From an uncultured Bacteroidota bacterium (GTDB taxonomy: Bacteria > Bacteroidota > Bacteroidia > AKYH767-A > JABDAW01), in contig CAIWCG010000072.1 of assembly GCA_903911135.1 (NCBI GenBank), positions 1 through 48,898 on the forward strand: a stretch of 48,898 nt of DNA. The letters are read 5' to 3'. Shown here piece by piece: positions 3,500 to 45,597 of this stretch (within the stretch, counting starts at the first letter, position 1; each line of letters begins with the position of its first letter). Both the position numbers and the translations under genes were made by a program. The notes beneath the pieces are model-generated. The model was not told the DNA's origin and searched no databases. It saw nothing but the letters and a program-made list of their open reading frames with translations.

Positions 3500-3709
3500 G
3501 GCCAAAATCAATTTGGATTTTGGCTAAATCAATTTTGATTCGTGTGAAAACCATTTTGATTTGAGTGAAATCAACTTTGATTTAGGCAAAATCAAAGTTG
3601 ATTTGTGTGAAAACCATTTTGATTTGGGCAAAATCAAAGTTGATTCGGGTGAAAGCGCAATTGATTTGAGTGAAAACCATTTTGATTTAGACAAAATCAA
3701 TTTTGATTT
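3500..3709. repeat. TR-1: tandem array, 10 units of 21 bp
   Basis: Units end in TTGATTT/C at 3520, 3541, 3562 ... 3709. Six units contain the 16-bp palindrome AAATCAA-NN-TTGATTT. Confidence 0.9.
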
Positions 3710-3899
3710 GAGCCATATTTAAGCATGATTAGGGGTTTACAAGTCTGCGATTCAGGTTTTACAAGGCTCAACTATACATTTCTTAGCTTATATCAGTATA
3801 ATAGCATCGCCATTAGCGTGCCATCATACTGATATGATAGGTATCCTTTTGATAGTCATTAAAAGTAAATTTGGCTTGATGGATATACGGTTTTGGCAT

Positions 3900-3937
3900 A
3901 AAAAAAACGGATTATCCTGCCTGATGAGGATAATCCG
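3900..3937 (-). terminator. Rho-independent terminator of the fasciclin gene
   Basis: Perfect 10-bp stem CGGATTATCC (3908-3917) / GGATAATCCG (3928-3937) followed on the minus strand by eight T. Confidence 0.8.
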
Positions 3938-3959
3938 CAATTTAGATAAAAATGTTAAA

Positions 3960-4532
3960 CTATTTCTTTTTGGGAGGCAAAAGCACGGCATCCACCACAT
4001 GAATAATGCCATTGGAGGCGGGAATGGAGGCCAAAATGTTGGCGCCATTGACAGTAGGTTTACCGTTGACCATCTTGATGGTTACGTTGTCGCCATTAGC
4101 TTGGCCAATTACCTGACCATCCTTGAAACTTTCGGCTTTGAAGACACCCACCGACACATGATACTCCAAAATGTTCCTCAAGTCTTTCTTTGCTTCAGGT
4201 TTCAAGAGACCTTCTACCGTTCCCTTTGGCAATTTGTCGAAAGCGGCATTGGTAGGCGCAAAAACGGTGAAAGGACCGGTGTTTGCAAGCACATCGACAT
4301 ACTCGGCAGCCTTTATGGCAGCAACCAAAGTGGTGTGGTCCTTGGAACCAACTGCAACTTTAACGATGTCCTTTGCACTTTGATCATCTTGCACAGAGGC
4401 CTGACCGCCAGCAGGAGTGGCTTCGGTTTTAGCTGCATCTTCTTTTTTTTCTTCATTTGGAGCATTGCAAGAATAAATGCTTGGCAGCAGCAAAGCCACT
4501 ACCATCAACGATTTCAATAAGTTCTTTTTCAT
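3960..4532 (-). CDS. Fasciclin (FAS1) domain lipoprotein
   Basis: 190 aa with a signal peptide and lipobox (IYSC). FAS1 signatures TVFAPTNAAFDKLP and NGIIHVVDAVLLP. Confidence 0.85.
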   Translation of the reverse strand: MKKNLLKSLMVVALLLPSIYSCNAPNEEKKEDAAKTEATPAGGQASVQDDQSAKDIVKVAVGSKDHTTLVAAIKAAEYVDVLANTGPFTVFAPTNAAFDKLPKGTVEGLLKPEAKKDLRNILEYHVSVGVFKAESFKDGQVIGQANGDNVTIKMVNGKPTVNGANILASIPASNGIIHVVDAVLLPPKKK

Positions 4533-4591
4533 TTTATAAAATATTAATTATGTTATAGCGGCAAATTAAAGACATGTTTATCCTTTATTAA

Positions 4592-4605
4592 ATGACATAT
4601 CTCAT
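4592..4605. promoter_or_regulatory. Candidate CRP/FNR-like box ATGAC-ATAT-CTCAT
   Basis: TGA-N6-TCA core in the divergent fasciclin/rrf2 spacer. The left half is identical to the nosZ box at 5243. Confidence 0.3.
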
Positions 4606-4610
4606 TTTGG

Positions 4611-4624
4611 GTGATGATATTCAT
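4611..4624. promoter_or_regulatory. Candidate CRP/FNR-like box GTGAT-GATA-TTCAT (inside palindrome TGATGA-TAT-TCATCA)
   Basis: TGA-N6-TCA core, 19 bp from the previous box. Confidence 0.25.
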
Positions 4625-4716
4625 CAGTCTAAGGATTTTAATCAAAGGCCAATTTTGCCAAATCAAATCATTAAGGAATTTTCGAAGAGTAAATTAATCA
4701 AAAAAACAGTTGGATT

Positions 4717-5151
4717 ATGATGTTTTCAAAAAAATGTGAGTACGCCCTAAAAGCAGCTATATATTTATACATTAAAAGTATAGACGGAAAAAAATTGGGT
4801 ATAAAGGAATTGGCTAAGGAAATAGAAAGCCCAGAACCATTTACAGCAAAAATATTGCAGGAATTGGTGAGGGCAAAAATCATTTCGTCCAATAAAGGAC
4901 CGAATGGGGGATTTTACATCGATCCAAAAGCAAAACCGGTACTGGTCATTGATCTTATTGATTTGATTGATGGCAAAGATTCGTTCGATCGTTGTGGATT
5001 AGGATTGAAAGAATGCTCCGAAAGCCACCCCTGCCCTATCCATAAAGAATTTAAAAGCTATTCATCTCGGTTAAAGAAACTATTAACAACAAAAACCTTA
5101 AAGGAATTTGCTGAAAGCGTAGAGTTAGGAGATGCTTTTATCAACAATTAA
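4717..5151 (+). CDS. Rrf2-family transcriptional regulator (IscR/NsrR-like, probable Fe-S ligands)
   Basis: 144 aa. N-terminal wHTH (MFSKKCEYALKAAIYL) and a C-x6-C-x5-C cluster (CGLGLKECSESHPC) where Rrf2 Fe-S ligands lie. Directly upstream of nosZ. Confidence 0.85.
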   Translation: MMFSKKCEYALKAAIYLYIKSIDGKKLGIKELAKEIESPEPFTAKILQELVRAKIISSNKGPNGGFYIDPKAKPVLVIDLIDLIDGKDSFDRCGLGLKECSESHPCPIHKEFKSYSSRLKKLLTTKTLKEFAESVELGDAFINN

Positions 5152-5208
5152 TTTATACCGATTAAATGTAATGTCCAATGCATATTAAAATATATAACTT
5201 TCTATTAC

Positions 5209-5240
5209 ACAAAAGGACATTAAGACCTTTTTGTCTTTAT
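5209..5240 (+). terminator. Probable terminator after the Rrf2 gene
   Basis: Stem ACAAAAGG / CCTTTTTGT (one bulged T) with a 9-nt loop and a T-rich tail CTTTATTT. Confidence 0.45.
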
Positions 5241-5242
5241 TT

Positions 5243-5256
5243 ATGACATTAATCAT
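5243..5256. promoter_or_regulatory. Candidate CRP/FNR-like box ATGAC-ATTA-ATCAT upstream of nosZ
   Basis: 5-4-5 inverted repeat with a TGA-N6-TCA core. Overlaps a second palindrome, AATCAT-N8-ATGATT (5251-5270). Lies about 45-60 bp upstream of the -7 box. Confidence 0.35.
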
Positions 5257-5300
5257 ATCTATGAATGATTGTCCTCATTGCCAAAAGGGTTATTAGAAAG

Positions 5301-5308
5301 TAATTTTG
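5301..5308 (+). promoter_or_regulatory. -7 promoter box (TAATTTTG) for nosZ
   Basis: Exact TAnnTTTG followed by CC, 80 nt upstream of the nosZ ATG. Confidence 0.5.
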
Positions 5309-5387
5309 CCCTTGTTAAATTATAAAAAATCAATATCGATAAACAATAATTAATTCACAGAATAACTTAAAATAAATTAAAACAAGT

Positions 5388-7364
5388 ATGAAAAAAGTAA
5401 CAGTAAAAACACTCATAGCCGCAATTGTCGGTATAATGTTTGTTGGCGGTTTGAGTAGTTGCAAACCGAAAAAAATCGAAGCAGCAGCAGCAGGAAATGC
5501 AGCTGAAAAAGTTTATGTAGCACCCGGAAAGAAGGATGAATTATATTTATTCACTTCTGGAGGCTTTAGTGGCCAAATTGGTGTTTATGGCCTACCATCA
5601 GGGCGTTTATTCAGGGTAATTCCAGTATTCGCTCAAAATCCGGAGAATGGTTATGGCTACAGTGAAGAAACCAAACCAATGTTAATGACATCACATGGTT
5701 TTGTTCCTTGGGATGATAGCCACCATCCACAATTATCAAAGACAGATGGAAATGCAGATGGTCGTTGGATTTTTATAAATGGAAATAACACACCTCGCAT
5801 CGCAAGAGTTGATTTAGGTAATTTTAGAACAGAAGAAATCATTGAATTGCCAAATACAGGAGGAAATCACGCCTCACCGTTTTTAACCCAAAATTCAGAA
5901 TATGTAGTTGGAGCTTCAAGATTTACAGTTCCATTTGATAATGATGGAGAAGCATCAATCGCAGACTTCAAGACAAAATTCAAAGGTTCTATTTCGTTTA
6001 TCAAGATTGACAAAGAAAGTGGAAAAATGGATTTGAGTTTCCAATTGCTTGTCCCTGGTGTCGATTATGACCTTTCTAGAGCAGGTAAAGCAATTTCAAA
6101 TGGTTGGAGTTTCTTTAGCTGTTATAATACAGAGCAAGCACATACGCTATTAGAAGTAAATGCAAGTCAAAGAGACAAGGATTTTATCATGTGTGTAAAT
6201 TGGAAAAAGGCGGAAGAATATTTGGCCCAAGGTAAAGGAAAGAAAACTCCAGCTAAATATGCGCACAATATATATGATGAGAAAACACATTCTGCTTCTT
6301 CTGAAATGAAAACAGAAGTTACTATAATGGATGTTAAAGATATGCCTGGTATTTGTTATTTCATTCCATGTCCAAAGTCTCCTCATGGTTGCGATGTTGA
6401 TCCAAGTGGAGAGTATATTTGCGCATCAGGAAAATTAGCAGCAGTAATACCTGTGTTTTCATTTAGCAAGATACAAAAAGCAATTGAAGCGAAGAGTTTC
6501 GAAGGAAATTTTGATGGCGTTCCAATCATAAAATATGAAGCAGCTTTGGATGGCGAGGTTGAAAAACCAGGCTTAGGCCCATTGCATACTGAATTTGATG
6601 ATAAAGGTAATGCTTATACTTCTTTCTTCGTATCATCTGAAATTGTTAAATGGAATGTAAAAACCAAAGCAATACTTGACCGAGTTCCTACCTACTATTC
6701 AATTGGTCATTTATGTGTTCCTGGCGGAGATTGCATTAAACCTTATGGAAAATATGTAATTGCCTTGAATAAAATCACTAAAGATCGTTATTTAGAAACA
6801 GGTCCTGAATTGACCCAATCTGCACAATTATATGATATAAGCGGAGAAAAAATGCAATTGCTTTTAGACTTTCCAACAATTGGTGAGCCTCATTATGCTC
6901 AAGCATGTCCAACTGATATTATTAAGAAGCATGAAGTTAAATTCTACAAACTTGAGGATAATATGCATAAATATGCTACAAAATTTGAAAAGGATGCAAG
7001 GGTTGTAAGAAAAGGAAAGGATGTTGATGTCTATATGACAATGATCCGTTCGCATTTTACACCTGATAACATAGAAGGTTTAAAGGTAGGAGACAACGTA
7101 TATTTTCATATTACCAATCTTGAACAAGATTGGGATGTTCCTCATGGTTTTGCAGTAAAAGGAAATAATAATGGTGAACTTCTTGTTATGCCTGGAGAAA
7201 CACAAACATTAAAATGGATACCAGATGTTGTTGGTGTTGTCCCTTTTTATTGTACCGATTTCTGTTCAGCTTTACATCAAGAAATGCAAGGATACATAAG
7301 AGTATCACCTACAAACTCAAATACCGCTTTAAAATTCTCAACAGGTGAAGAAGATAAAAAATAA
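5388..7364 (+). CDS. nosZ: Nitrous-oxide reductase, clade II (Sec-dependent) type
   Basis: 658 aa. Lipoprotein-type Sec signal (GGLSSC, no twin-arginine). His motifs DDSHHPQ and GGNHASP. C-terminal CuA site C-TDF-C-SAL-H-QE-M. Followed by nosL/D/F/Y. Confidence 0.95.
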   Translation: MKKVTVKTLIAAIVGIMFVGGLSSCKPKKIEAAAAGNAAEKVYVAPGKKDELYLFTSGGFSGQIGVYGLPSGRLFRVIPVFAQNPENGYGYSEETKPMLMTSHGFVPWDDSHHPQLSKTDGNADGRWIFINGNNTPRIARVDLGNFRTEEIIELPNTGGNHASPFLTQNSEYVVGASRFTVPFDNDGEASIADFKTKFKGSISFIKIDKESGKMDLSFQLLVPGVDYDLSRAGKAISNGWSFFSCYNTEQAHTLLEVNASQRDKDFIMCVNWKKAEEYLAQGKGKKTPAKYAHNIYDEKTHSASSEMKTEVTIMDVKDMPGICYFIPCPKSPHGCDVDPSGEYICASGKLAAVIPVFSFSKIQKAIEAKSFEGNFDGVPIIKYEAALDGEVEKPGLGPLHTEFDDKGNAYTSFFVSSEIVKWNVKTKAILDRVPTYYSIGHLCVPGGDCIKPYGKYVIALNKITKDRYLETGPELTQSAQLYDISGEKMQLLLDFPTIGEPHYAQACPTDIIKKHEVKFYKLEDNMHKYATKFEKDARVVRKGKDVDVYMTMIRSHFTPDNIEGLKVGDNVYFHITNLEQDWDVPHGFAVKGNNNGELLVMPGETQTLKWIPDVVGVVPFYCTDFCSALHQEMQGYIRVSPTNSNTALKFSTGEEDKK

Positions 7365-7375
7365 TTTTCAAGAGG

Positions 7376-7411
7376 TTGGGGTGCATGAACATCATGCCCC
7401 CAATTTCTTGT
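7376..7411 (+). terminator. Intra-operon hairpin / partial terminator after nosZ
   Basis: 11-bp stem (TTGGGG-T-GCATG / CATGC-CCCCAA, one bulge) with a 5-nt loop, then TTTCTTGTT. Confidence 0.5.
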
Positions 7412-7449
7412 TGAGTTATACCAAATGGATTAGCGAACAAACTACAAAT

Positions 7450-8022
7450 ATGAGAACGATGAAACCGATATCTAGAATAGTAATATTCTTATGCGCCATG
7501 GCAATGATTCCATCGCTTTATATGTCGGTTTGGCAAATACAATTGGAAGCTCCTCAATATCCTGAAGGCTTGAAGCTTGAACTATGGAGTACCAAGATAG
7601 CTGGAGATATTGATAAAATAAATGGGTTAAACCATTACATCGGCATGGATCAGATTCATCAAGAGAACTTTAAAGAGTTTCAAGTCATGTCCTATATGAT
7701 TTGGGCGATGATTGGATTTGCAGTTCTTGGGGCAGCCACAGGTAAAAAGATATTTTTATGGATTCTTTCTGCATATCTTATCGTTTGTGGATTATGGGGA
7801 ACTTATGATTTCTGGCATTGGGAATATATATATGGTCACAATCTGAATCCACATGCAGCAATTAAGATTCCCGGAATGGCTTATCAGCCCCCTTTGTTTG
7901 GATGGAAACAATTATTAAACTTTACTGCGGGTTCTTTCCCTGATATTGGCGGTTGGCTTGTAATTGGCCCCTCGATAATGATAATTTTAATACTCATATA
8001 CGAAAAATTTATCAGGAAATAA
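7450..8022 (+). CDS. Integral membrane protein in the nosB position of clade II nos clusters
   Basis: About 190 aa from the ATG at 7450 (MRTMKPISRIVIFL), with several TM helices. Lies immediately downstream of nosZ. The ORF-track start at 7345 overlaps nosZ and spans the hairpin, so it was rejected. Confidence 0.55.
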   Translation: MRTMKPISRIVIFLCAMAMIPSLYMSVWQIQLEAPQYPEGLKLELWSTKIAGDIDKINGLNHYIGMDQIHQENFKEFQVMSYMIWAMIGFAVLGAATGKKIFLWILSAYLIVCGLWGTYDFWHWEYIYGHNLNPHAAIKIPGMAYQPPLFGWKQLLNFTAGSFPDIGGWLVIGPSIMIILILIYEKFIRK

Positions 8023-8059
8023 TCAATATATGGAATTCTATAACCATAATTATGAGTTT

Positions 8060-8122
8060 CGAGACCTTAACTTCGAGAGCCGAAACCTTTGCTTCGAACG
8101 TCGAAACCTTGGTTTCATTCAT
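8060..8122. repeat. TR-2: mini-array, 3 units of 21 bp (CGARACCTTnnnTTCnA...)
   Basis: Units at 8060-8080, 8081-8101 and 8102-8122, in the spacer between the nosB-like gene and nosL. Confidence 0.65.
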
Positions 8123-8196
8123 TCAAGTCATGGATTCCTAAGTTCAATCTTTGTATTTGATTGTCAATTAAATTCATAAACAGAAGTATCTTTATT

Positions 8197-9857: not shown

Positions 9858-10567
9858 TCAGAACAGAAAATATTGTAAAGAAATTTGGGAAACTTCAAGT
9901 TTTGAAAGGTGTTAATACACTGTTTCAAAGTGGAGAAGTTATCTCTGTTATTGGGCCAAATGGTTCTGGGAAAACAACATTAATCAAATGTATTTTAGGC
10001 ATGGTTGTTCCTGACAGTGGTAAGATTTTCTTTGATGGCAAGGATATCAGTAATGATTTCTCCTACCGGAAAGACATTGGTTTTATGCCTCAAATTGGCC
10101 ATTATCCTGAAAACATGAAAATTGGACAACTGTTTGCGATGATGAAGGATTTAAGACGGATTTCATCAGAATTAGATGAAGAACTTTTGGAGGAATACGA
10201 CCTTAATAACATGTATCAAAAGGCTATGCGAACCCTCTCTGGAGGAACCACCCAAAAGGTAAGTGCTGCTCTGGCTTTCATGTTTAATCCCAAAGTACTT
10301 ATTCTAGATGAGCCTACAGCAGGACTTGACCCATTAGCAGCAGAAATCCTTAAAGAAAAAATATTAAAAGCAAAAAAACAAGGGAAACTCGTGATTATAA
10401 CCTCACACATCATGAGTGAAGTTGATGAATTGGCAGATAGCATCATGTATCTGTTCGAAGGTAAGATTCTCTTCAATAAAACAATCATGAACATCAAAAC
10501 TGAAACAGGTGAGGACAAACTGGGTAAGGCAATTGCGAAAATAATGAAACAAAACAACCATGTTTAA
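9854..10567 (+). CDS. nosF: NosF, ABC transporter ATP-binding protein
   Basis: Walker A GPNGSGKTT, signature LSGGTTQK and Walker B LILDEP. Overlaps nosD and nosY. Confidence 0.9.
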   Translation: MIRTENIVKKFGKLQVLKGVNTLFQSGEVISVIGPNGSGKTTLIKCILGMVVPDSGKIFFDGKDISNDFSYRKDIGFMPQIGHYPENMKIGQLFAMMKDLRRISSELDEELLEEYDLNNMYQKAMRTLSGGTTQKVSAALAFMFNPKVLILDEPTAGLDPLAAEILKEKILKAKKQGKLVIITSHIMSEVDELADSIMYLFEGKILFNKTIMNIKTETGEDKLGKAIAKIMKQNNHV

Positions 10568-11327: not shown

Positions 11328-11379
11328 TTATTGAAGATTCCTATTTTCGATGCTCAAAAACCGATTTTTAACTTAAATA

Positions 11380-11556
11380 GACATGGATTATTCACAATTA
11401 GCCATGGCAGATTCACAGTCTGCCATGGCAGATTCACAGTTAGCCATGGCAGATTCACAGTTAGCCATGGTAGATTCACAGTCTGCCATGGTAGATTCAC
11501 AGTCTGCCATGGCAGATTCACAGTCTGCCATGGCAGATTCACGGTTAGCCATGGCT
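11380..11556. repeat. TR-3: tandem array, about 8.4 units of 21 bp (GCCATGGCAGATTCACAGTYW)
   Basis: Each unit carries the 8-bp palindrome GCCATGGC. Four of six frames are stop-free, which produces the overlapping ORFs 11331-11682. Confidence 0.95.
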
Positions 11557-11602
11557 AAAAAATGGGATTTCAACCAAAATTGCAAATGTTTGGACGAGAA
11601 AC

Positions 11603-11731
11603 CTGCCATCGGGCATAGCCCTGACATGCCCAAGGTTATCCTTTTGTGCGTTGGCATTTTTGGGGGGGTATGGAAAAGATAACTGATGGCTGGCAGGTAG
11701 CACCAAATAACGCGAGGTGTCTGTCGGCTTC
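11603..11731 (+). repeat. Possible diverged relative of the AGCGG element (copy 4?)
   Basis: Patchy collinear similarity to 28189-28309: TGCCATCG..GCATAGCCC, CTTT(T)GTG.CG...TTTGGGG, and CGAG-N9-GGCTTC against CGAG-N11-GGCTCC. The stem GTTATC(C)TTTT/AAAAGATAAC replaces CCGCTGC/GCAGCGG around the same G-rich loop. Confidence 0.35.
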
Positions 11732-11798
11732 AAAAAAGAATTATTGATTATCCATTTTTAATTGAGCGGAGTTGAGTTAGATGTATCCCATTTATTTA

Positions 11799-11806
11799 TA
11801 CATTTG
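11799..11806 (+). promoter_or_regulatory. -7 promoter box (TACATTTG) for the POT transporter
   Basis: Exact TAnnTTTG followed by CCGC, 27 nt upstream of the ATG at 11833. Confidence 0.5.
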
Positions 11807-11832
11807 CCGCATTAATAATCAATAATGGATTT

Positions 11833-14076: not shown

Positions 14077-14198
14077 GCCCCCTACCCTATTCAACTCGAT
14101 TTCCTTACCTTCAATATTTAATAATATCAGTCCAAACATGTTTGGCAAATAGGTTAATTGCCAAAATAAACATCAAAACTCGTATTGACAACAAACAT

Positions 14199-14607
14199 AT
14201 TATTGGATGTGTTCAATACGACCATATTGGGTCAATACATATTAATGGATGTGTTCAATACGACCGTATTGGGTCTATCTATATTTATGAATCCAGTCAA
14301 TACGACCGTTTCCAGTCAATCACTAAGTAGTAATCCATTCAAAACGACCGTTTCCAGTCAATCACTAAGTAGTAATCCATTCAAAACGACCGTTTCAAGT
14401 CAATCAATAAGTAGTAATCCATTCAAAACGACCGTTTCCAGTCAATCATTAGGTAGTAATCCTTTCAATACGACCGTTTCCAGTCAATCACTAGGTAGCA
14501 ATCAATTCAAAACGTCCGTTTCCAGTCAATCACTAAGTAGTAATCCATTCAAAACGACCGATTCCAGTCAATCACTAGGTAGCAATCAATTCAAAACGTC
14601 CGTTTAT
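14199..14607. repeat. TR-4: tandem array, about 9.7 units of 42 bp
   Basis: Unit boundaries at 14199, 14241, 14283, 14325 ... 14577. Core AAACG-AC-CGTTT in each unit. The first 2-3 units are a diverged variant. Confidence 0.95.
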
Positions 14608-14627
14608 CCCAACTATTAGAATTTATG

Positions 14628-14650
14628 ATAATAGCTTCTTTTCAAGCCAT
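14628..14650 (+). repeat. 23-nt motif ATAATAGCTTCTTTTCAAGCCAT flanking TR-4 (identical copy at 45667-45689)
   Basis: Identical 23-mer in the same orientation downstream of TR-4 (20 bp away) and of TR-12 (69 bp away). Confidence 0.85.
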
Positions 14651-14693
14651 CATCATAAATTCATCAGGAAGAAAAGGAAACTCCTGATGATGG

Positions 14694-18922: not shown

Positions 18923-19284
18923 TGCGGCGCAAATTAAGTATTATTTAAGGTAATCGTTTTGTTTTTATCAATAAATTGTAAAAGATGATACAAGACCCAT
19001 TGCAAGCAGAATCATTAACAAATCTGATGCCCAAAATTCTTCCGATTCTTATCGATGAGATCCAGCAGATGGGCAATATGATGAAGCTTTTCAGCCATTA
19101 CCTGCAATTGATTTCATAAAAGATATGACTAAAAATCATGGTTTTATTAATTATCATCCTCAAGATGCAGCATACCGATAAAAAGTCATCGATGATAAAT
19201 GATTAGCAATCATAAATTATTGATGACCATATAATAACAGTATAACAGATGGCGGTGAATGGGTAAGACATGCAGCTCTTTCTG

Positions 19285-19830
19285 GAAAAGCGATTCCTTT
19301 TTCCGAAAAAGCGATTCCTTTTCTCTGTTTTGCGATTGCTTTTTCTAGATAAGCTGCAGGTAAAACGGTTTTAGCTGCACCTTTTCCAACAAAAGCGATT
19401 GCTTTTCTTGAATTTGCGATTGCTTTTTCTCCATAACCTGCACCTAAAATCGATTTACCTACATGAAATCGAAAAAAAGGAATCGCTTTTTCGGAAAAAG
19501 GAATCGCTTTTTGATAATAAGGTGTAAGCTATGCTTGAAAAGGTTCAGGTTTTAATTGAAATGATGTAGGTGATGAAGAATAAGATGCATCTTTTGTTAG
19601 AAAAGGTTAAGCTAATGATAAAAAAGGTGTAACATCTGGCATTTTAGGTTAAGCTTTTGGCTAAAGAGATGCAGGTGATGACGAATCTGATGCAGGTTTT
19701 GATTGAAAAGTTTAAGCTATTTATAAAAAAAGTGCACCTCCTGGCTTTTTAGCTTATGCTTTTGATAAAACAGATGCAGGTAACGACGAATCAGCTTCAG
19801 GTTTTGATTGAAAATCTTAATCATCATGCA
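19285..19830. repeat. TR-5: degenerate tandem array, 26 units of 21 bp with a 105-bp (5x21) higher-order repeat
   Basis: The register holds from 19285 to 19830 (units start GAAAAG/AAAAAG/TTTTAG/AATMWG). 19600-19704 against 19705-19809 is about 81 percent identical by hand count. No ORF of 60 aa or more in 18923-19956. Confidence 0.85.
19286..19511. repeat. Perfect 37-bp inverted repeat pair inside TR-5 (arms 19286-19322 and 19475-19511)
   Basis: AAAAGCGATTCCTTTTTCCGAAAAAGCGATTCCTTTT and its exact reverse complement, separated by 152 bp. Confidence 0.9.
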
Positions 19831-19924
19831 ATAATTGCATCGCATTTCTGCGAGCTATCATGGCATAATGATTATCATTGCCAGCATTATCGGCAGTTTT
19901 TAAATTAAAGATGTGGTAATTTGC

Positions 19925-19932
19925 TATATTTG
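19925..19932 (+). promoter_or_regulatory. -7 promoter box (TATATTTG) for ettA
   Basis: Exact TAnnTTTG followed by CAGCCC, 25 nt upstream of the ATG at 19957. Confidence 0.5.
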
Positions 19933-19956
19933 CAGCCCTAAAAATAAATATTAAAC

Positions 19957-21633: not shown

Positions 21634-21791
21634 TATTTTAAGGCTTAATGAGGAGGGTAAATATCATCCTTTTATTGTTGCTCCAGAAGGGGTCGCAATC
21701 ATAAAAGGATTATCAAACCTGAATGGAGATTTGAATTCGTTAATTATATGTCTCCTTATATAAAGATTTAGTTTTAAACTTGCCATTTACC

Positions 21792-21955
21792 CAAACGTTA
21801 CCGTTTGAGTTCGAAACGTTACCGTTTGAGATCGAAACGTTACCGTTTGAGGTCGAAACGTTACCGTTTGAGGTTGAAACGTTACCGTTTGAGGTCGAAA
21901 CGTTACCGTTTGAGGTTGAAACGTTACCGTTTGAGGTCGCAACGGTGACGTTTGG
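21792..21955. repeat. TR-6: tandem array, about 7.8 units of 21 bp (GAAACGTTACCGTTTGAGGTY)
   Basis: Units at 21792, 21813 ... 21918. Core AAACG-TTAC-CGTTT inverted repeat in each. Confidence 0.95.
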
Positions 21956-21993
21956 CAAAAGCCTTAATTAACCCTTATTTCAAAGAATATTTC

Positions 21994-22044
21994 GTTCATC
22001 GTCGTGTGACTACGACCTTTTGGAAGTAGCAACACGACGATGAA
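21994..22044. other. Long hairpin (13-bp perfect stem)
   Basis: TTCATCGTCGTGT (21994-22006) pairs with ACACGACGATGAA (22032-22044). Inner CTAC/GTAG pairs. No T-run follows. Confidence 0.7.
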
Positions 22045-22064
22045 TAAACCAATTACGAATTAAA

Positions 22065-22110
22065 AATTAGAAATTAGGAATGCGCACATCGTAATTCCTA
22101 ATTCCTAATT
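22065..22110. other. Long AT-rich hairpin (16 of 17 bp) abutting the hisS promoter
   Basis: AATTAGAAATTAGGAAT (22065-22081) pairs with ATTCCTAATTCCTAATT (22094-22110). The 11-mer AATTCCTAATT also occurs at 48806-48816. Confidence 0.7.
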
Positions 22111-22116
22111 GGTTTC

Positions 22117-22124
22117 TATCTTTG
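22117..22124 (+). promoter_or_regulatory. -7 promoter box (TATCTTTG) for hisS
   Basis: Exact TAnnTTTG followed by CCGCC, 21 nt upstream of the ATG at 22145. Confidence 0.5.
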
Positions 22125-22144
22125 CCGCCTTATAAAATGATATT

Positions 22145-27262: not shown

Positions 27263-27319
27263 GAATATTGCCAAAAAGTTAGGTTTCTGTCTTGGTGAGT
27301 TTGTAATTTATTGTTTTAG

Positions 27320-27550
27320 CTGTCGTCTGTCATAAGTTACCTGTCGTCTGTAATAAGTTGCCTGTTGTCTGTCAAAATTGTCTTGTCGTCTGTCATAAGT
27401 TACCTGTCGTCTGTAATAAGTTGCCTGTCGTTTGTCATAAATTGCCTGTTGTCTGTCATAAGTTGCTTGTTGTCTGTCATAAATTGCCTGTCGTCTGTAA
27501 TAAGTTACCTGTCGTTTGGCATAAGTTGCCTGTCGTTTGGCATAAGTTAC
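27320..27550. repeat. TR-7: tandem array, 11 units of 21 bp (CTGTCGTCTGTCATAAGTTRC)
   Basis: Unit starts at 27320, 27341 ... 27530. Internal direct half-repeat CTGTC-GT-CTGTC. Confidence 0.95.
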
Positions 27551-27672
27551 TTGGTGTCGGGGATTTAATGGTTGTGGATAGTTAAAAAATTAGAATAAAG
27601 TATAAAATGTTTAAAATTAGAGTTGGGAATAGATATTACCAATGTAAAAAGAGATGCTTTAGGTGGTTTTTG

Positions 27673-27903
27673 AGCTTATCTAATTGTTGTAATATGCTAT
27701 CTCGGGGTTGTAAAATGCTATCTCTTGGTCGTGAAATGCTATCTCGTGGTCATGAAATGCTACCTCGTGGTCGTAAAATGCTATCTCGGGATCGTAATAT
27801 GCTACCTCGTGGTCGTAAAATGCTACCTCGGGATCGTAATATGCTATCTCATGATCGTAAAATGCTATCTCGGGATCGTAAAATGCTACCTCGTTATCAT
27901 AAA
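27673..27903. repeat. TR-8: tandem array, 11 units of 21 bp (ATGCTAYCTCGKGRTCGTAAW)
   Basis: Unit starts at 27673, 27694 ... 27883. Sequence is unrelated to TR-7, which lies 120 bp upstream. Confidence 0.95.
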
Positions 27904-27950
27904 ATGAGAGTCATTTGAAAGATTTTAAGCTAAGAAGGGTGGAAAAGGGG

Positions 27951-28090
27951 AAATGTGGGTGGGTGTTTTGGGGTCTGGATTGCAAATCCAGACCAGCGGG
28001 AAAATGTGGATGGGTGTTTTGGGGTCTGGATTACAAATCCAGACCAGCAGATTGGGTGTTTTGGGGTCGGGATTGCAAATCCCAACCAGC
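27951..28090. repeat. TR-9: three copies of a 37-nt hairpin repeat (GGGTGTTTTGGGGTCTGGATTGCAAATCCAGACCAGC)
   Basis: Copies at 27961-27997, 28012-28048 and 28054-28090 (spacings 51 and 42 bp). 9-10 bp stem GGTCTGGAT/ATCCAGACC. Copy 3 has a paired T-A to G-C change. Confidence 0.9.
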
Positions 28091-28309
28091 GTGATAGTGA
28101 ACAACCTTACAGGACGGCGAGAAAAAAGCCGACCTGTCAGGATGTTCGCCGCAGCCAGGTATTGTATTGGAAGTTGTTTCGAGGCAACTTGCCATCGAAG
28201 CATAGCCCCGATAGTAGCGGCAGCCCGCTGCTTTGTGTCGGGTTTGGGGATGCAGCGGCTACAGCGGATAGCGGGACTGGCCATGATACGAGTGGAGGAT
28301 ATAGGCTCC
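28091..28309 (+). repeat. AGCGG element, copy 2 (only internal, probably full-length copy)
   Basis: 28211-28309 matches 1-99, and the core matches 48869-48898 (minus strand). Upstream part contains hairpins ACAGGACGGC/GCCGACCTGT (9/10 bp) and AAGTTG/CAACTT. CCGCTGC (28225-28231) can pair with GCAGCGG (28251-28257). Confidence 0.7.
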
Positions 28310-28534
28310 AAATTGGAATTCTTCATGCAAATCTTTTATCAATAATTGTTATGATTTTCATGGTAATTCATCGAGAAAAGTTCCAAGAGATTTGCGATAT
28401 TTGCGGCGTGAAAATCTATATCTCTATCCCAGAGGTTCGGGAATTCAACATGGAAACATTTTTTGTTGAGATAATTGATGGTCTGCTTGCCGATAGGCAG
28501 CCTATAGTTTTGAATAAAAGAACTTAAAAATACG

Positions 28535-33745: not shown

Positions 33746-33769
33746 TCCTATCTAAAGGAAATCTTAAAA

Positions 33770-33801
33770 AGCCATTCTATTTATTTAGGATGGCTTTTTT
33801 T
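33770..33801 (+). terminator. Rho-independent terminator of the second POT gene
   Basis: 10-bp stem AGCCATTCTA / TAGGATGGCT (one G-U) with a 6-nt loop, followed by TTTTTT. Confidence 0.8.
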
Positions 33802-33824
33802 GTTTGATAATCATCCAAAACCTT

Positions 33825-34010
33825 AAAAAGGTCACCATGATCATAGTTTGGTATTTTGTAGCTTAAAAAGGTCAATCCATGATCATAGTTTGGGATTTTG
33901 TAGCCTAAAAAGGTCATTCCATGATCATCGATTGGGATTATTCAGCCTAAAAAGGCCAATCCATGATCATCGATTGATAATTTCCTTAAAAAGGACAATT
34001 GCTTATAAGG
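33825..34010. repeat. TR-10: tandem array, about 4.5 units of about 42 bp (AAAAAGGTCAWTCCATGATCAT...)
   Basis: Unit starts at 33825, 33865, 33907, 33949 and 33988 (lengths 40, 42, 42, 39). Palindrome ATGATCAT in each unit. Confidence 0.85.
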
Positions 34011-34065
34011 TTACCAATATATCTGTATATTTATCCTTGCCAAAAGAACATGGCCAAGAATGGAA

Positions 34066-39882: not shown

Positions 39883-40015
39883 TGGTATTTATTTTTTTTA
39901 TAATTTTATTGATATTATGAATTTACAATTGCTTATTGATTATTCTATTCAAGTAAATGTTTTTTTGACCAAAAAATGGCATTAGAGAGGCCCAGTCGTT
40001 ACTTTTTAGCCCTCT

Positions 40016-40245
40016 CTGATGGATGAGAACGGGGTAAAAAGTAATGCCCGAATACCTCCTCAGGATGAGATCATACCAAAAAGTACTGCCTGTATTCTTC
40101 CGAAGGATGAGAGCATACCAAAAAGTGGGGCCTGTATTCTTCCGAAGGATGAGAGACCACCAAAAAGTACTTACAAGGGCTTTTCCAAGAAAAGAGGAAT
40201 CCCAAAAACTGGTACCCGAGACCTTGTGGGCTTTTGGAAAAAATG
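40016..40245. repeat. TR-11: tandem array, about 5.5 units of 42 bp (CCGAAGGATGAGAGCATACCAAAAAGT...)
   Basis: Unit starts at 40016, 40058, 40100, 40142, 40184 and 40226, decaying outward. Lies between the GerE-like gene and the 320-aa orphan. Confidence 0.85.
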
Positions 40246-40369
40246 GAAATGAAATTTGCTCCGCTCTGTTCACGAGGCAAAATAGCAAATTATTTGTCTG
40301 CATTGATACCCCCAATCAGGGGTTTATGGAAAATAAAGTTTTTTTGAGCGCAAAAGCCTTGGCAATGTC

Positions 40370-40588
40370 TCACACGGCATATCCCATCCTGATGGCATAG
40401 GCAGCCAAGGCATTGATGGTATGAATCCGCAGCATGTCGTAGATTATTTTCAGATGCCCTTCAAAAGTGTTGAAGTTCATTTCCAGTTCTTCGGCCATTT
40501 TTATTTGAGTCATGTCCTTGACAGAAATGGTAATCACCCTCGCCTCATCCACCATAAATCCGTTAGCATCACGTGGTTTTAAATTCAT
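40370..40588 (-). CDS. Stand-alone LuxR/GerE-type helix-turn-helix protein
   Basis: 72 aa that aligns by eye with GerE over the whole HTH (MTQIKMAEELEMNFNTFEGHLKIIYDMLRIHTINALAAYAIRMG). Has its own -7 box. Confidence 0.55.
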   Translation of the reverse strand: MNLKPRDANGFMVDEARVITISVKDMTQIKMAEELEMNFNTFEGHLKIIYDMLRIHTINALAAYAIRMGYAV

Positions 40589-40632
40589 AATTTTTAAGGT
40601 TTAATTTTTAAAAGCGTTTTTGTTTCGAGATA

Positions 40633-40640
40633 CAAAAGTA
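40633..40640 (-). promoter_or_regulatory. -7 promoter box (TACTTTTG on minus strand) for the GerE-like gene
   Basis: Plus strand reads CAAAAGTA, 44 nt upstream of the ATG at 40588. Confidence 0.45.
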
Positions 40641-40696
40641 GGGAAACGTGGGGAAGTATTTATTTAAATGACATCTGGCAATAGAATTATTTTTTG

Positions 40697-40704
40697 TAAT
40701 TTTG
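40697..40704 (+). promoter_or_regulatory. -7 promoter box (TAATTTTG) for the lipoprotein gene
   Basis: Exact TAnnTTTG. It overlaps the ORF-track TTG start at 40702, so the ATG at 40726 is preferred. Confidence 0.45.
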
Positions 40705-41571: not shown

Positions 41572-42453
41572 TTAGTTATAAACCTCCTTGCGGGCTGCTT
41601 TGAGTGTATTTTCGAGCAAGGCCACAATGGTCATCGGCCCTACCCCACCCGGAACAGGTGTGATGAAGGAACATTTTGGAGCCACCTGGTCGTATTCCAC
41701 ATCGCCCTTGAGGGCAAAACCGGTCTTCTTGCTGGAGTCTTCGATGCGGGTAAGCCCCACGTCTATCACCACGGCACCTTCCTTCACCATATCGTGGGTA
41801 AGGAATCCCGGCTTGCCCAAAGCCACGATGATGATATCGGCCATCAGCGTAAACTGACGGAGGTTTTGTGTGCGGGAATGGCAAAGCGTAACGGTGCAGT
41901 TGCCAGGGTTTCCATCACGTGCCATAAGTATGCTCATGGGTGACCCTACAATGTTGCTTCGGCCTATCACCACACAGTGTTTGCCCTTGGTTTCTATGTT
42001 GTAATGTTCGATGAGTTTGAGTATGCCGAAAGGTGTGGCAGCAATGTAGCAAGGCAGGTTCTTCACCATTCGGCCTGTGTTTTCGGGATGAAAGCCATCT
42101 ACATCCTTGGATGGTTTGATGGCATTGATGATCTTGTCGACAGCTATGTGCTTGGGCAAAGGAAGTTGCACGATGAAGCCGTCTATGTTGTCGTCATCGT
42201 TTATTTCTTGAATCTTTTCGAGAAGCGTTTTTTCGGAGATGTCGTTGGCAAAACGGAACAAGGAAGAATCGAAACCTACCTGTTCGCAAGCCTTTACCTT
42301 ATTGGCCACATAGGTTTCGGAAGCACCGTTTTCGCCCACCAAGATGGCGGCAAGATGTGGAACCTTCCCACCATTTTCCTTCATCTCAAGCACCTGCAAG
42401 GCAATCTTGTCCTTCAATAAAGCGGCTACTTCCTTTCCGTTGATCAGCTCCAT
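41572..42453 (-). CDS. folD: Bifunctional methylenetetrahydrofolate dehydrogenase / methenyl-THF cyclohydrolase
   Basis: 293 aa. Conserved [46 protein letters not shown]. Confidence 0.95.
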
Positions 42454-42475
42454 CAGTTATATTATAGGTATGGAA

Positions 42476-43804
42476 CTATCGTTTCGGCATCATGCTCTGC
42501 ATCTTCTTCATTGCAGCAGGGCTTACTTGTGCCTTCAACTGATTTCTAATATAGTCGAAACGTTGTATCAGCTGATTGATTTCTTGCATGCTTCGGCCAC
42601 TGCCTCTGGCTATCCTGTTCTTGCGGTTTCCATCGAGCTTCACCTTGCAGTCGCGTTCGGCGGGAGTCATGGAATTGATGATGGCAATCATGGGCTTGAA
42701 GTTTTCATCGCTGAAATCGACATCCTTGATTTGTTTTCCAATGCCAGGAATCATAGAAGCTATTTCCTTGAGGTTTCCCATCTTCTTCACATATCCGAAC
42801 TGCTCCAGCATATCATTAAATGTCAATTCGTTCTTGGCAATCTTGCGCTCCAGCTTCTTTGCCGACTCGTCATCATACACCGATTGGGCCCGCTCCACCA
42901 ACGATACGATGTCGCCCATTCCCAATATCCTGTCAGCCATACGTTCCGGATAAAAGACATCCAGCGCTTCCAGTTTTTCACCCGTACCTACAAACTTGAT
43001 GGGTTTGCTCACCACCGACTTGATGGACAATGCAGCTCCACCACGTGTATCGCCATCCATCTTGGTAAGCACTACGCCACTGAAATCAAGTCTGTCGTTG
43101 AAAGTCTTTGCAGTGTTCACGGCATCTTGTCCTGTCATGGCATCCACAACAAACAATATCTCGTTGGGATTGATGGCCTTCTTGATGGCAACTATTTCAC
43201 TCATCATCTGCTCATCTATTGCCAAACGACCGGCAGTATCTATGATAACCACATTATTTCCACTTTCCTTGGCCTTGCGAATTGCATTCTGGGCAATCTG
43301 AATAGGGTTCTTGTTCTCCAATTCCGAATAAACCGAAACTCCAATCTGTTCGCCAAGAACCGTAAGCTGGTTAATGGCAGCCGGTCTATAGACATCGCAA
43401 GCCACCAACATAACGGACTTACCCTTTTTGTTCTTCAGATAGAATGCAAGCTTGCCGGACAAAGTGGTTTTACCCGAACCCTGAAGACCAGACATGAGGA
43501 TGACAGCCGGATTTCCCTTCAAGTCAATCTCTTCTGCCTGGCCACCCATCAGTTGTGTGAGTTCATCATGAGTTATCTTCACCAACAACTGACCTGGCGA
43601 CACGGAGGTCAATACATTTTGTCCCAAGGCTTTCTCTTTTACGGTATCCGTAAAGGTTTTTGCCACCTTGTAGTTAACGTCGGCATCCAACAAGGCTTTT
43701 CTTACTTCCTTGATGGTCTCTGCCACGTTAATCTCACTTATTTTTCCTTGACCCTTTAATGTTTTTAGGGCTCTCTCCAGTTTCTCGCTTAAATTGTCGA
43801 ACAT
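42476..43804 (-). CDS. ffh: Signal recognition particle protein
   Basis: 442 aa. GTPase motifs GLQGSGKTT, DTAGR, TKMDGD. Met-rich M domain. Confidence 0.95.
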   Translation of the reverse strand: MFDNLSEKLERALKTLKGQGKISEINVAETIKEVRKALLDADVNYKVAKTFTDTVKEKALGQNVLTSVSPGQLLVKITHDELTQLMGGQAEEIDLKGNPAVILMSGLQGSGKTTLSGKLAFYLKNKKGKSVMLVACDVYRPAAINQLTVLGEQIGVSVYSELENKNPIQIAQNAIRKAKESGNNVVIIDTAGRLAIDEQMMSEIVAIKKAINPNEILFVVDAMTGQDAVNTAKTFNDRLDFSGVVLTKMDGDTRGGAALSIKSVVSKPIKFVGTGEKLEALDVFYPERMADRILGMGDIVSLVERAQSVYDDESAKKLERKIAKNELTFNDMLEQFGYVKKMGNLKEIASMIPGIGKQIKDVDFSDENFKPMIAIINSMTPAERDCKVKLDGNRKNRIARGSGRSMQEINQLIQRFDYIRNQLKAQVSPAAMKKMQSMMPKR

Positions 43805-43827
43805 GTTTATCTGATTTTTATCTGCCG

Positions 43828-43835
43828 CAAATTTA
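43828..43835 (-). promoter_or_regulatory. -7 promoter box (TAAATTTG on minus strand) for ffh-folD
   Basis: Plus strand reads CAAATTTA preceded by CTGCCG. 23 nt upstream of the ffh ATG. Confidence 0.5.
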
Positions 43836-43887
43836 TATTATTTCCATGAAGTCATTAAGAAATCTTCTTCTGCTCCATTTAAAAGGT

Positions 43888-43895
43888 TAATTTTG
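43888..43895 (+). promoter_or_regulatory. -7 promoter box (TAATTTTG) for the second Nramp gene
   Basis: Exact TAnnTTTG followed by CCGC. It ends only 4 nt before the ATG at 43900, which implies a leaderless or very short-leader mRNA. Confidence 0.4.
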
Positions 43896-43899
43896 CCGC

Positions 43900-45177
43900 A
43901 TGAATATTATTTCCCCTAGAAAAATTCGTTATAAGCTCCTTATCTATTGGAAAAAGCTTGGTCCTGGTTTGATAACTGGCAGCAGCGATGACGATCCGTC
44001 GGGGATAGCAACTTATTCGCAGGCTGGGGCAGCTTATGGCCTCACTACCCTTTGGACAGCCTTGATTACCTTTCCTTTGATGGCTGCAATACAAGAGATG
44101 TGTGCCCGAATAGGTATCGTTACCAGTGAAGGACTTACCGGTACGCTCAAAAAGCATTATCCTCGCCCCATTTTATATTTGATGTTGCTCTTTAGCTTTC
44201 CTGCTATCGTATTAAACATAGGTGCGGACATCGCAGGGATGGGTGCTGTAGGAAATCTACTCTTCCCTACCATCGATGCCACCTTCTTTTCCGTCGTGTT
44301 CACCATCATATTGCTGGTGGCCATCATCTATTTGCCCTATCAGAAACTTGCAGCGGCATTAAAGTACTTGTGCATCGTGTTATTGGTTTATGTTATCGTT
44401 CCTTTCCTCTATCATCAGGACTTATTGGAAATCCTTAAGGCCACATTCGTTCCCACTATCCATTTCGACATTACCTTTATCAGCATTTTGGTTGGCATAT
44501 TGGGAACTACCATTTCGCCATACCTCTTTTTCTGGCAGACTACCATGGAAGTGGAGAAGATGAAACAGAAAAAGTACCAGCTTATGGTCAACCACAACAT
44601 CATTAGGGAAATGAAGAAAGACGTGGACTTCGGGATGCTCTTTTCCAACCTCGTCATGTTTTTCATTATCCTCACCACAGGCACCGTTTTGTTCAAAGGC
44701 GGCATCCATCAGATAGATACCGTAGAGCAAGCCGCCCAAGCCCTAAAGCCTTTAGCCGGCAGGGCAGCCTATTTGCTCTTTGCCGTAGGCGTTATAGGCA
44801 CAGGGTTTCTCGCTATACCCGTTTTGAGCGGCTCTTTATCCTATATCTTCTGCCAAACCTTCGGATGGAAAGAGGGTCTCGACAAAACCTTCTACGAAGC
44901 CCGTCCATTCTACTCCATCCTCGCCATATCGCTCATCCTTGGCCTCTCGCTGAACTACATCGGCATCACACCCATACAGGCATTGATATATTCCGCCATT
45001 TTATACGGCCTTTCAGCCCCCGTTCTCATCGCCATGATACTCCACATCTCGAATAACAAGAAGATAATGGGCGAATTCACCAACAATAGGCTCTCCAACA
45101 TCTTAGGTTTCTCCGCCTTGGCATTGATGACGGTGGCAGCCCTAGTTTTAATCTACCTAACCATCTTCAAACCCTAA
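43900..45177 (+). CDS. Nramp-related transporter with a non-canonical metal-site signature
   Basis: 425 aa with about 11 TM helices. TM1 reads DDDPSGIATYS (not DPGN) and the TM6 region reads TTISPYLFFW (not MPH). Confidence 0.8.
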   Translation: MNIISPRKIRYKLLIYWKKLGPGLITGSSDDDPSGIATYSQAGAAYGLTTLWTALITFPLMAAIQEMCARIGIVTSEGLTGTLKKHYPRPILYLMLLFSFPAIVLNIGADIAGMGAVGNLLFPTIDATFFSVVFTIILLVAIIYLPYQKLAAALKYLCIVLLVYVIVPFLYHQDLLEILKATFVPTIHFDITFISILVGILGTTISPYLFFWQTTMEVEKMKQKKYQLMVNHNIIREMKKDVDFGMLFSNLVMFFIILTTGTVLFKGGIHQIDTVEQAAQALKPLAGRAAYLLFAVGVIGTGFLAIPVLSGSLSYIFCQTFGWKEGLDKTFYEARPFYSILAISLILGLSLNYIGITPIQALIYSAILYGLSAPVLIAMILHISNNKKIMGEFTNNRLSNILGFSALALMTVAALVLIYLTIFKP

Positions 45178-45387
45178 AAAACAAGCATTTTATCCATCCG
45201 TTCGATGATGCTTTTATGAGTTCGCCACTGCTGTGGACGAAATTATAAAAGCATCATGAATAAAGAAAACCGTCATTCATTATATATAGTCATCATTATT
45301 GATGATTTAAGTTTTTTTATGATTGCTAAATATCCCCTTTTGGCAAGTTTCAGCTTGAGATTGACCAAAACCACCTTAAAAGCACAG

Positions 45388-45597
45388 AAAAAAGAAGTCT
45401 TGTTTGGAAAAAAAGAAGTCTTGACGGGCAAAAAAGAAGTCTTGACGGACAAAAAAGAAGTCTTGACGGGCAAAAAAGAAGTCTTGATGAGCAAAAAAGA
45501 AGTCTTGACGAGCAAAAAAGAAGTCTTGACGAGCAAAAAAGAAGTCTTGACGGACAAAAAAGAAGTCTTGACGGGCAAAAAAGAAATCCTTTCGGGG
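45388..45597. repeat. TR-12: tandem array, 10 units of 21 bp (AAAAAAGAAGTCTTGACGRRC)
   Basis: Unit starts at 45388, 45409 ... 45577. One A6 tract per unit. Four of six frames are stop-free (ORFs 45256-45708 plus, and three on minus). Confidence 0.95.

Follow-up and report, generated by a model that had tools for sequence, protein, structure and literature searches.

Why should tandem repeats that share no sequence be built to a common length? The question is raised by a 48,898-bp stretch of DNA (contig CAIWCG010000072.1, assembly GCA_903911135.1; hereafter, the window) from an uncultured freshwater member of the Bacteroidia, in which an earlier note had marked 12 intergenic tandem arrays with unrelated units of 21 or 42 bp. 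We found that length is the sole property common to all arrays, that the arrays are variable-number tandem repeats, and that they belong to a described class of repeats with constant size and variable sequence. The window genome shows type IX secretion system (T9SS) sorting domains and a nos gene cluster (Pfam), and its lineage is sampled in lake metagenomes, the StratFreshDB BUCK21 set among them.

Arrays were detected with Tandem Repeats Finder (TRF) on the full window and by lag self-matching within the 12 intervals marked earlier, and the gene map was drawn from Pfam domains and from gene calls on identical contigs. All 12 positions yielded arrays by TRF and lag analysis, and they are listed here with the array-bearing spacers of at least 320 bp.

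3500-3710 (TRF, 3503-3710), spacer 3406-3959: about 10 units of 21 bp with a 63-bp higher order; TRF periods 21, 42, and 63, best score 251
8060-8122 (TRF, 8060-8110), 139-bp spacer within the nos gene cluster: period 21, 2.4 to 3 copies, 71 to 80% matches; TRF score 60, lag-21 match 0.71
11380-11556 (TRF, 11390-11555), spacer 11328-11832: about 8 units of 21 bp, GCCATGGCAGATTCACAGTYW; TRF 7.9 copies, 91% matches, score 248
14195-14607 (TRF, to 14605), spacer 14077-14693: about 9.8 units of 42 bp in two related subfamilies; TRF scores 149 and 513
19279-19830, spacer 18923-19956: 26 diverged units in strict 21-bp register; TRF periods 21, 84, and 105, scores 75, 200, and 287
21792-21959 (TRF, 21793-21944), ettA-hisS spacer 21634-22144: 8 units of 21 bp, GAAACGTTACCGTTTGAGGTY; TRF 94% matches, score 269
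27320-27550 (TRF, to 27548), spacer 27263-28534: 11 units of 21 bp, CTGTCGTCTGTCATAAGTTRC; TRF 10.9 copies
27673-27906 (TRF, 27689-27906), same spacer: about 10.4 units of 21 bp with a 42-bp higher order; TRF scores 268 and 303
27947-28090, same spacer: hairpin array, probably a separate kind of repeat, of three units, each with a 9-bp-stem hairpin, GGTCTGGATTRCAAATCCAGACC, and a G-rich linker; spacings of 51 and then 42 bp
33824-34010 (TRF, 33824-33970), spacer 33746-34065: about 3.5 to 4.4 units of 42 bp between convergent genes; TRF score 217
40016-40245 (TRF, 40036-40169), spacer 39883-40701: about 3.2 clear 42-bp units plus decayed flanking units; TRF score 142
45388-45597 (TRF, to 45585), spacer 45178-45764: about 10 units of 21 bp, AAAAAAGAAGTCTTGACGGGC; TRF 93% matches, score 326

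The statement in the earlier note that every unit measures 21 or 42 bp holds for 11 of the 12 arrays, eight with 21-bp and three with 42-bp units, and fails for the hairpin array. In the sister strain L001, which is 97.7% identical to the window, the spacings of this array are 44, 51, and 42 bp, so the 21-bp rule is not strictly followed; its unit at 27972 was found solely in the window array and the L001 orthologue, and the array is probably an irregular repeat of its own kind. The three 42-bp arrays (14195-14605, 33824-33970, and 40036-40169) have no 21-bp substructure by lag analysis. The 105-bp (5 x 21) higher order noticed earlier is present in array 19279-19830, which also has an 84-bp (4 x 21) order, and a 63-bp order occurs as well. 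Of all the arrays, the one at 8060-8122 is weak and would be marginal alone.

Lag analysis and gene context gave further detail for single arrays. The units of array 3500-3710, between a ccmD-like gene (+) and a fasciclin gene (-), contain AAATCAA-NN-TTGATTT and give self-matches of 0.69 and 0.80 at lags 21 and 63, and array 11380-11556, downstream of nosY, gives a lag-21 match of 0.89. Lags 42, 84, and 126 dominate both in array 14195-14607, which lies between convergent genes, shows an internal lag of 19, and has the same length in strain L099, and in array 40016-40245, which lies in a divergent spacer and is identical in Logan contig L103. Array 19279-19830 occupies the divergent spacer upstream of ettA (ABC-F); its length is unchanged in L001, and Logan contig L002 covers it at 100% identity from 19482 onward. 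Two window arrays have a 7-bp subrepeat, 8060-8122 and, more clearly, 27320-27550, where the lag-7 and lag-14 matches are 0.44 and 0.43.

By the coordinates of the earlier note the arrays occupy 2,797 bp in all (5.7% of the window), in agreement with its estimate of about 2.8 kb and 6%, and TRF clusters cover 5.3%; in sampled DNA of the lineage, the density is about one array per 4 kb. All arrays lie between Pfam-supported genes. The gene map also bears out the claim that every non-tRNA spacer of at least 320 bp carries an array, whatever the orientation of the flanking genes. TRF rows scoring at least 50 numbered 26 in the real window versus 6 summed over thirty dinucleotide shuffles, none of period 21. 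The unit sequences are unrelated, as had been noted; blastn among the spacers gave a single 27-bp match, which lies outside the arrays. Slippage on random seeds cannot account for one length quantum across arrays of independent sequence, and on this point too we agree with the earlier note. In spacer DNA outside the arrays, there is a faint excess of self-similarity at lags 21, 42, and 7 (z = 2.3, 2.1, and 1.8), a pattern that fits the decay of old arrays into such DNA.

Alignment of orthologous spacers, proposed earlier as a check, revealed whole-unit copy-number differences between near-identical strains. These comparisons rest on short-read assemblies, so that the exact copy numbers are provisional, while the period is not. 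Three arrays differ between the window and L001, as follows.

Array 21792: 8 units in the window, 9 units in L001 (+21 bp)
Array 27320: 10.9 units in the window, 17.9 units in L001 (about +147 bp)
Array 27689: 10.4 units in the window, 3.5 units in L001, region 9989-10061 (about -147 bp)

At array 33824, strain L102, which is 99.9% identical to the window over 14.4 kb, has exactly one more 42-bp unit, and the two differ in length by 42 bp over that distance. When each unit variant of array 27320 is given a letter, the window reads ABCDBEFGHIJK and L001 reads ABLMNOGHPQIIANGPIJK; the first and last units are conserved between strains, and interior blocks are duplicated and reshuffled. The arrays are variable-number tandem repeats (VNTRs) that change by whole units, and we infer that slippage or unequal exchange is the mechanism of change. 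With the minisatellites used in multilocus VNTR analysis (MLVA), they share head-to-tail units, whole-unit strain differences, stable edges, and homogenized interiors. In contrast, ordinary VNTR loci of one genome have assorted unit lengths, and here length is quantized over all loci.

For comparison with relatives, we used 80 loci around ettA homologues from species-representative genomes, 16 hisS loci from metagenomes, and contigs of the closest ettA relatives; the comparison with other Bacteroidia covered 96 loci (1.45 Mb in total). In the close clade (ettA 95 to 96% identical to that of the window), contigs L106 and L107 have five or six strong 21-bp arrays each, with units unlike those of the window that include CGAGGGTCTGTCATGTTCCTT (15.7 copies), AAACCTATTTGTGTTTGCGCC (9.6 copies), ACCTAACATTGAATCGATGTT (8.6 copies), and TTTGGCTCAAACTTGAATACG (11.5 copies). 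Arrays make up 6.2% of the DNA in L106 and L107 and 0 to 0.9% in L083 and L104. In the same clade, arrays of 21, 42, and 63 bp occur in L084, and L105, L108, and L109 each show a single, decayed region of 21-bp arrays. No arrays were found in the next relatives, L110 to L112 (ettA 85 to 86% identical). Pooled over the clade, every one of the 14 arrays with at least four copies has a period divisible by 21, and the same holds for 15 of 24 low-copy repeats.

Arrays occur about one-seventh as often in the 96 other Bacteroidia loci, with periods spread widely (29, 33, 35, 41, 44, 45, 62, 91, and others), and none of the window units has a match there. The exceptions are a few distant lineages, L012, L013, L025, L028, L033, and L066, which have 21-bp arrays together with abundant 7-bp arrays, including GAAGTAA (20 copies), ACCCAAA (14 copies), AGTCCGT (15.6 copies), and GGTAAAG (12.7 copies). 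These heptamer arrays often have 21-bp higher orders of three units and lie beside genuine 21/42-bp arrays (for example, L025, 8555-8801 and 16043-16145). In one of the exceptions, the chromosome-level relative L025 (OW818690.1), a 21/42-bp array reaches 16.5 copies.

Between ettA and hisS, the window has a spacer of 511 bp, versus 0 to 48 bp in L083, L084, L104, and L110 to L112. Upstream of ettA, the arrays of the window and L106 are unrelated, and the 36 bp adjacent to the gene are conserved. Because orthologous spacers hold unrelated units, because spacer lengths contrast in this way, and because no window unit was matched elsewhere, we conclude that the arrays are born independently, are lineage specific, and are short-lived in evolution.

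The ettA-hisS junction (window 21634-22144; L083, L084, and L104 to L112) is itself a variable hot spot. In L105, L108, and L109, it holds a two-gene cassette (AAA_15 and DUF3226) followed by the decayed 21-bp array. L106 and L107 encode an identical EttA protein and lose synteny directly downstream of ettA, where L107 has an HpaII-type restriction-modification pair. These two contigs share a 21-bp array, AAACCTATTTGTGTTTG, upstream of a proline dehydrogenase gene (L106, 6971-7172, 9.6 copies; L107, 4703-4886, 8.8 copies), and this array marks the exact synteny break: upstream of it, L106 has a GPDH gene and L107 has DUF4440/LigB genes. In the window, a hairpin at 22046-22115 lies just upstream of hisS, and its arms (17 to 24 nucleotides [nt], 88 to 94% complementary) are heptamer repeats (AATTAGA AATTAGG ... 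TAATTCC TAATTCC); the same spacer has long hairpins at 21663-21713 and 21995-22044.

Subirana and Messeguer reportedly treated tandem repeats of constant size and variable sequence in a first paper (J Bacteriol 2020;202:e00229-20). The view in the earlier note that the arrays fit no described repeat class does not stand, since the same authors have described such repeats of 20 to 21 nt (Int J Mol Sci 2021, PMC8161180). They distinguished two size classes, one of 20 to 21 nt (range, 20 to 23) in individual species of many groups, including Bacillus, Cyanobacteria, and Actinobacteria, and one of 52 nt (51 to 53) in Firmicutes only. The repeats were found to be noncoding and species specific, with those of one species often sharing a short motif; the authors pointed out that 21 nt correspond to two helical turns and proposed either a DNA-polymerizing protein by which the nucleoid would be stabilized or small RNAs. 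The window arrays are of this 20- to 21-nt class, here as 21 bp and its double, because they are constant in length, variable in sequence, noncoding, and species specific, genus-level relatives having other units at the same spacer. The odd 51-bp spacing of the hairpin array happens to equal the second size of the class.

In several respects, this case differs from the published one. The host belongs to the Bacteroidia, a group not mentioned in that paper; 42-bp units without 21-bp substructure are also common here; the density is very high, at 5.3 to 6.2% of sampled DNA; and a short motif common to the species shows up only weakly. Besides host, 42-bp units, and density, what it adds to the class is whole-unit turnover in near-identical natural strains, co-occurrence with heptamer repeats in distant relatives, and negative results for curvature and hairpins.

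We found little else that the units have in common. The claim that most contain a palindrome or internal repeat is borne out only as a marginal enrichment (best inverted repeat per unit, P of about 0.05). Among short k-mers, CAAAA/TTTTG occurs in 7 of 14 window units (P = 0.016) and AAAAAG in 5 of 14 (P = 0.028), and no motif is universal. In a wedge model with provisional wedge-angle parameters, the predicted bend of the units was raised in the window (mean percentile, 0.67 to 0.72), but this was not replicated in 18 independent arrays of relatives (0.52 and 0.48), and we rejected intrinsic curvature as a general property. Single-strand folding of arrays compared with shuffled-unit arrays (ViennaRNA) showed no systematic excess (0.58, z = 1.4) and was heterogeneous, with 3503, 11401, L084a, and L106c strongly self-complementary and 27320, L012a, and L025a notably unstructured.

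Variation within units tends to fall in one patch of 3 to 6 bp beside a conserved core of 15 to 17 bp (Fisher-combined P of about 0.02), as in array 45388-45597, downstream of an Nramp gene, where it is limited to a 4-bp patch. This weakly suggests a "site plus linker" layout like that of known protein-binding repeats. Iterons, LytTR sites, and omega/ParG heptads are all phased protein-binding repeats. Over 25 unit consensuses, circular lags 6 and 15 are enriched (z = 2.9), lags 9 and 12 are depleted (z = -3.4), and lags 7 and 14 are not enriched. A scan for sigma-70-type promoters found no enrichment in the arrays, although that consensus is not applicable to Bacteroidetes promoters, and the 21-bp period does not match the spacing of the Bacteroidetes -33/-7 promoter, which by arithmetic is about 27 bp start to start. 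Terminator-like hairpins are repeated only in the array at 14290 (within 14195-14607), where they are weak and lie on the minus strand, with matches at 14360, 14444, and 14570.

What, then, sets the length? The earlier note had offered a length-measuring generator or selection, the latter for helical phasing or for frame preservation; the generator and helical phasing are both still live readings, and frame preservation is unsupported, as set out below. Between the two, we favor a constraint of two helical turns. Each array arose independently in a gene spacer of the lineage. Once present, it would grow, shrink, and reshuffle by in-register replication slippage or unequal recombination, so that the period would be kept and higher orders of 63, 84, and 105 bp would result. 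Since 21 bp is two helical turns and 42 bp is four, each unit would present the same face, and we hypothesize that a sequence-independent, lineage-specific protein lattice of nucleoid type could bind and stabilize such arrays, and only them. Because sequence, bend, and hairpin potential are not shared, the constraint would act on length alone. The 42-bp units without 21-bp substructure are compatible with such a geometry, having four helical turns.

Several observations weigh against this reading. Geometry leaves unexplained both the absence of units of 31 to 32 bp (three turns) and the 7-bp arrays that lie beside 21-bp arrays in distant relatives. No candidate for the binding protein was found, the motifs shared among the units (CAAAA and AAAAAG) are weak, and no structural property is common to them, bend not being raised in relatives, under the same provisional wedge parameters, nor folding overall. 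Arrays are not conserved at orthologous sites between genera and are missing in some sister lineages, which counts against a long-standing function and fits a mutational by-product equally well. The whole picture, of noncoding hypervariable minisatellites whose length is set by two-turn DNA geometry through a binding lattice, is thus plausible but tentative; within it, we place far more confidence in the class assignment and the slippage dynamics than in the lattice.

A lineage-specific enzyme or process, possibly acquired horizontally, might instead duplicate 21 or 42 bp of any sequence in tandem, for instance by filling in and religating staggered nicks 21 bp apart or by templated synthesis. 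In that case, the arrays would be by-products, neutral or selfish, that only spacers tolerate. We consider such a generator somewhat unlikely, although a number of findings suit it: length alone is common to arrays that are heterogeneous in sequence, bend, and hairpin potential; the arrays are patchy among close lineages yet present in distant Bacteroidia; they are short-lived, and array-bearing spacers look like new DNA (511 versus 0 to 48 bp); and 21 bp is already the dominant period among low-copy repeats of the clade (15 of 24), although such repeats may be remnants of old arrays and not newly born ones. The gene maps show no candidate enzyme in the window or the fetched loci, and TRF found no nascent 21-bp duplications inside window genes, where they would be in frame. 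We know of no bacterial process that makes 21-bp staggered duplications. Finally, since the class is reported from several phyla (PMC8161180), the factor would have to have been transferred widely.

If the true quantum were 7 bp, each unit could have begun as three heptamers that later diverged. Heptamer repeats of the TAACTGA type are known from Beggiatoaceae, Cyanobacteria, and some Bacteroidetes (PMC4679880), and, like the window arrays, these and the cyanobacterial STRR heptamers are intergenic, lineage-patchy tandem repeats, with 21 being 3 x 7. The richness of L012, L013, L025, L028, L033, and L066 in 7-bp arrays, the fact that some 21-bp units there are visibly three heptamers, the lag-7 and lag-14 structure of array 27320, seven small 7-bp repeats in the window, and the weak excess at lags 7, 21, and 42 in nonarray spacer DNA all point this way. 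However, lag-7 structure is present in only 3 of 25 unit consensuses (pooled z = 1.1), no arrays of 14, 28, or 35 bp occur in the window or the close clade, and the 42-bp units lack 7-bp as well as 21-bp substructure. Unlike the heptamer repeats, the window units are diverse rather than one family and, except in arrays 27320 and 8060, are not three heptamers. An origin from heptamers is therefore quite unlikely. One heptamer repeat of the window lies at 106-149 (+), upstream of a gene of the phospholipase D family, and consists of 4.4 copies of GAGTTAT (106-136) followed by five of GAG; the complement, TAACTCA, differs from the TAACTGA heptamer (PMC4679880) at a single position.

We regard it as very unlikely that the arrays act in RNA, transcribed in untranslated regions or as small RNAs and serving as repeated modules for binding or pairing. 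Several of them, lying just downstream of genes, would fall in 3' untranslated regions, some (3503, 11401, L084a, and L106c) could pair strongly with themselves, and the 52-nt repeats of Bacillus coagulans, a class for which such a role has been suggested in Bacillus, are reported to be transcribed (PMC8161180). Yet no Rfam 15 family matches an array at its gathering score, the only hits in the window being a tRNA-Met and a Flavo-1 RNA outside the arrays; folding potential is not systematically raised, and 27320, L012a, and L025a stand out as unstructured; it is not obvious what a strict period of 21 nt would mean in RNA; and convergent, divergent, and codirectional spacers carry arrays alike, with inconsistent strand orientation. 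The 1.27-kb spacer that holds arrays 27320, 27689, and 27947 also contains the Flavo-1 RNA (RF01705; 28200-28282 [+]; 52.6 bits, with the gathering score at 42), which is located upstream of a gene for a SulP transporter.

Frame preservation, as if units were seven codons, found no support in codon phase, open frames, or translations, and it is highly improbable that the arrays encode seven-residue protein repeats of small unannotated genes. Units of 21 bp would indeed let copy number change without loss of frame, but any multiple of 3 would do so, not 21 alone. Gene callers do set small open reading frames (ORFs) over several arrays; such frames are expected by chance, arrays 3500 and 19285 have none at all, and the translations are of low complexity, implausible, and devoid of signal peptides or domains. 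The variable sites of array 27320 fall 17/3/3 by coordinate modulo 3, whereas 8 of 10 arrays show no codon-phase bias. One ORF (45256-45708 [+]), across array 45388, matches LbR_Ice_bind ("grass antifreeze beta roll") at 32.3 bits versus a Pfam cutoff of 30, a spurious match due purely to nine repeats of KKEVLTG. The variable sites of array 27320 are mostly C/T and A/G and would be synonymous in one frame (VVCHKLP), although the array is covered by no convincing gene, and the region 19285-19830 has a milder 3-bp bias (81/89/47).

Scarcely credible, finally, are the proposals that the arrays are minisatellites of a mobile element, such as a miniature inverted-repeat transposable element (MITE), or an artifact of de Bruijn assembly at k = 21. 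Array-bearing spacers do resemble insertions relative to sister lineages, but they have no terminal inverted repeats beyond the palindromes of the units, share no flanks except one 23-bp repeat, and have no match in plasmid or phage collections. MEGAHIT and SPAdes both begin at k = 21, which is a point in favor of an artifact; however, the same arrays and unit variants appear in SPAdes, MEGAHIT, and Logan (k = 31) assemblies of different samples, substitutions within units cannot arise from graph cycles, and the chromosome-level relative OW818690.1 has such arrays too. Logan contigs stop inside the most uniform arrays, as real repeats would make them do. The 23-bp repeat, ATAATAGCTTCTTTTCAAGCCAT, occurs twice in exact copies on the plus strand (14628-14650 and 45667-45689; zero expected by chance), 20 to 70 bp downstream of arrays 14195-14607 and 45388-45597, and elsewhere only in the orthologous strain contig L099.

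Other familiar repeats do not account for the arrays, and for BOX, REP/BIME, ERIC, and CRISPR, this had been noted before. Together with the minisatellite-bearing MITE of Porphyromonas gingivalis, these share with the arrays an intergenic position and, in part, palindromic units. CRISPR was rejected because the units run head to tail without unique spacers and the window has no cas domains (Pfam), and REP/BIME because each unit family is restricted to one locus, with no dispersed copies and no alternating orientation. Iterons of replication origins are likewise direct repeats about 21 to 22 bp apart, with a conserved core and a variable linker, that place their proteins on one face of the helix. 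They form, however, one family located next to their initiator gene and a DNA-unwinding element rich in AT, whereas 49 kb of ordinary chromosome contain at least 11 families unrelated to one another here; no rep or dnaA gene adjoins them, and dnaN (46857-47981) adjoins no array.

In some bacterial genomes, tandem repeats keep a fixed length whatever their sequence, a feature that still lacks an explanation. The present lineage shows it with unusual clarity and density: the quantum is strictly 21 or 42 bp, and arrays make up about 5 to 6% of sampled DNA. It widens the known range of the class to the Bacteroidia and links the class to the heptamer repeats of related genomes. In practical terms, arrays of this kind inflate spacers, yield spurious ORF calls and Pfam matches, and break short-read assemblies. 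Sister lineages with and without arrays and strain variation in public lake metagenomes make comparative and population tests feasible. We think it unlikely that a true molecular ruler of two turns, whether a duplicating enzyme or a lattice of 21-bp pitch, operates in this lineage and in the scattered bacteria that bear the class; if one does, about 6% of the genome would be new intergenic DNA of its making, turned over within strains.

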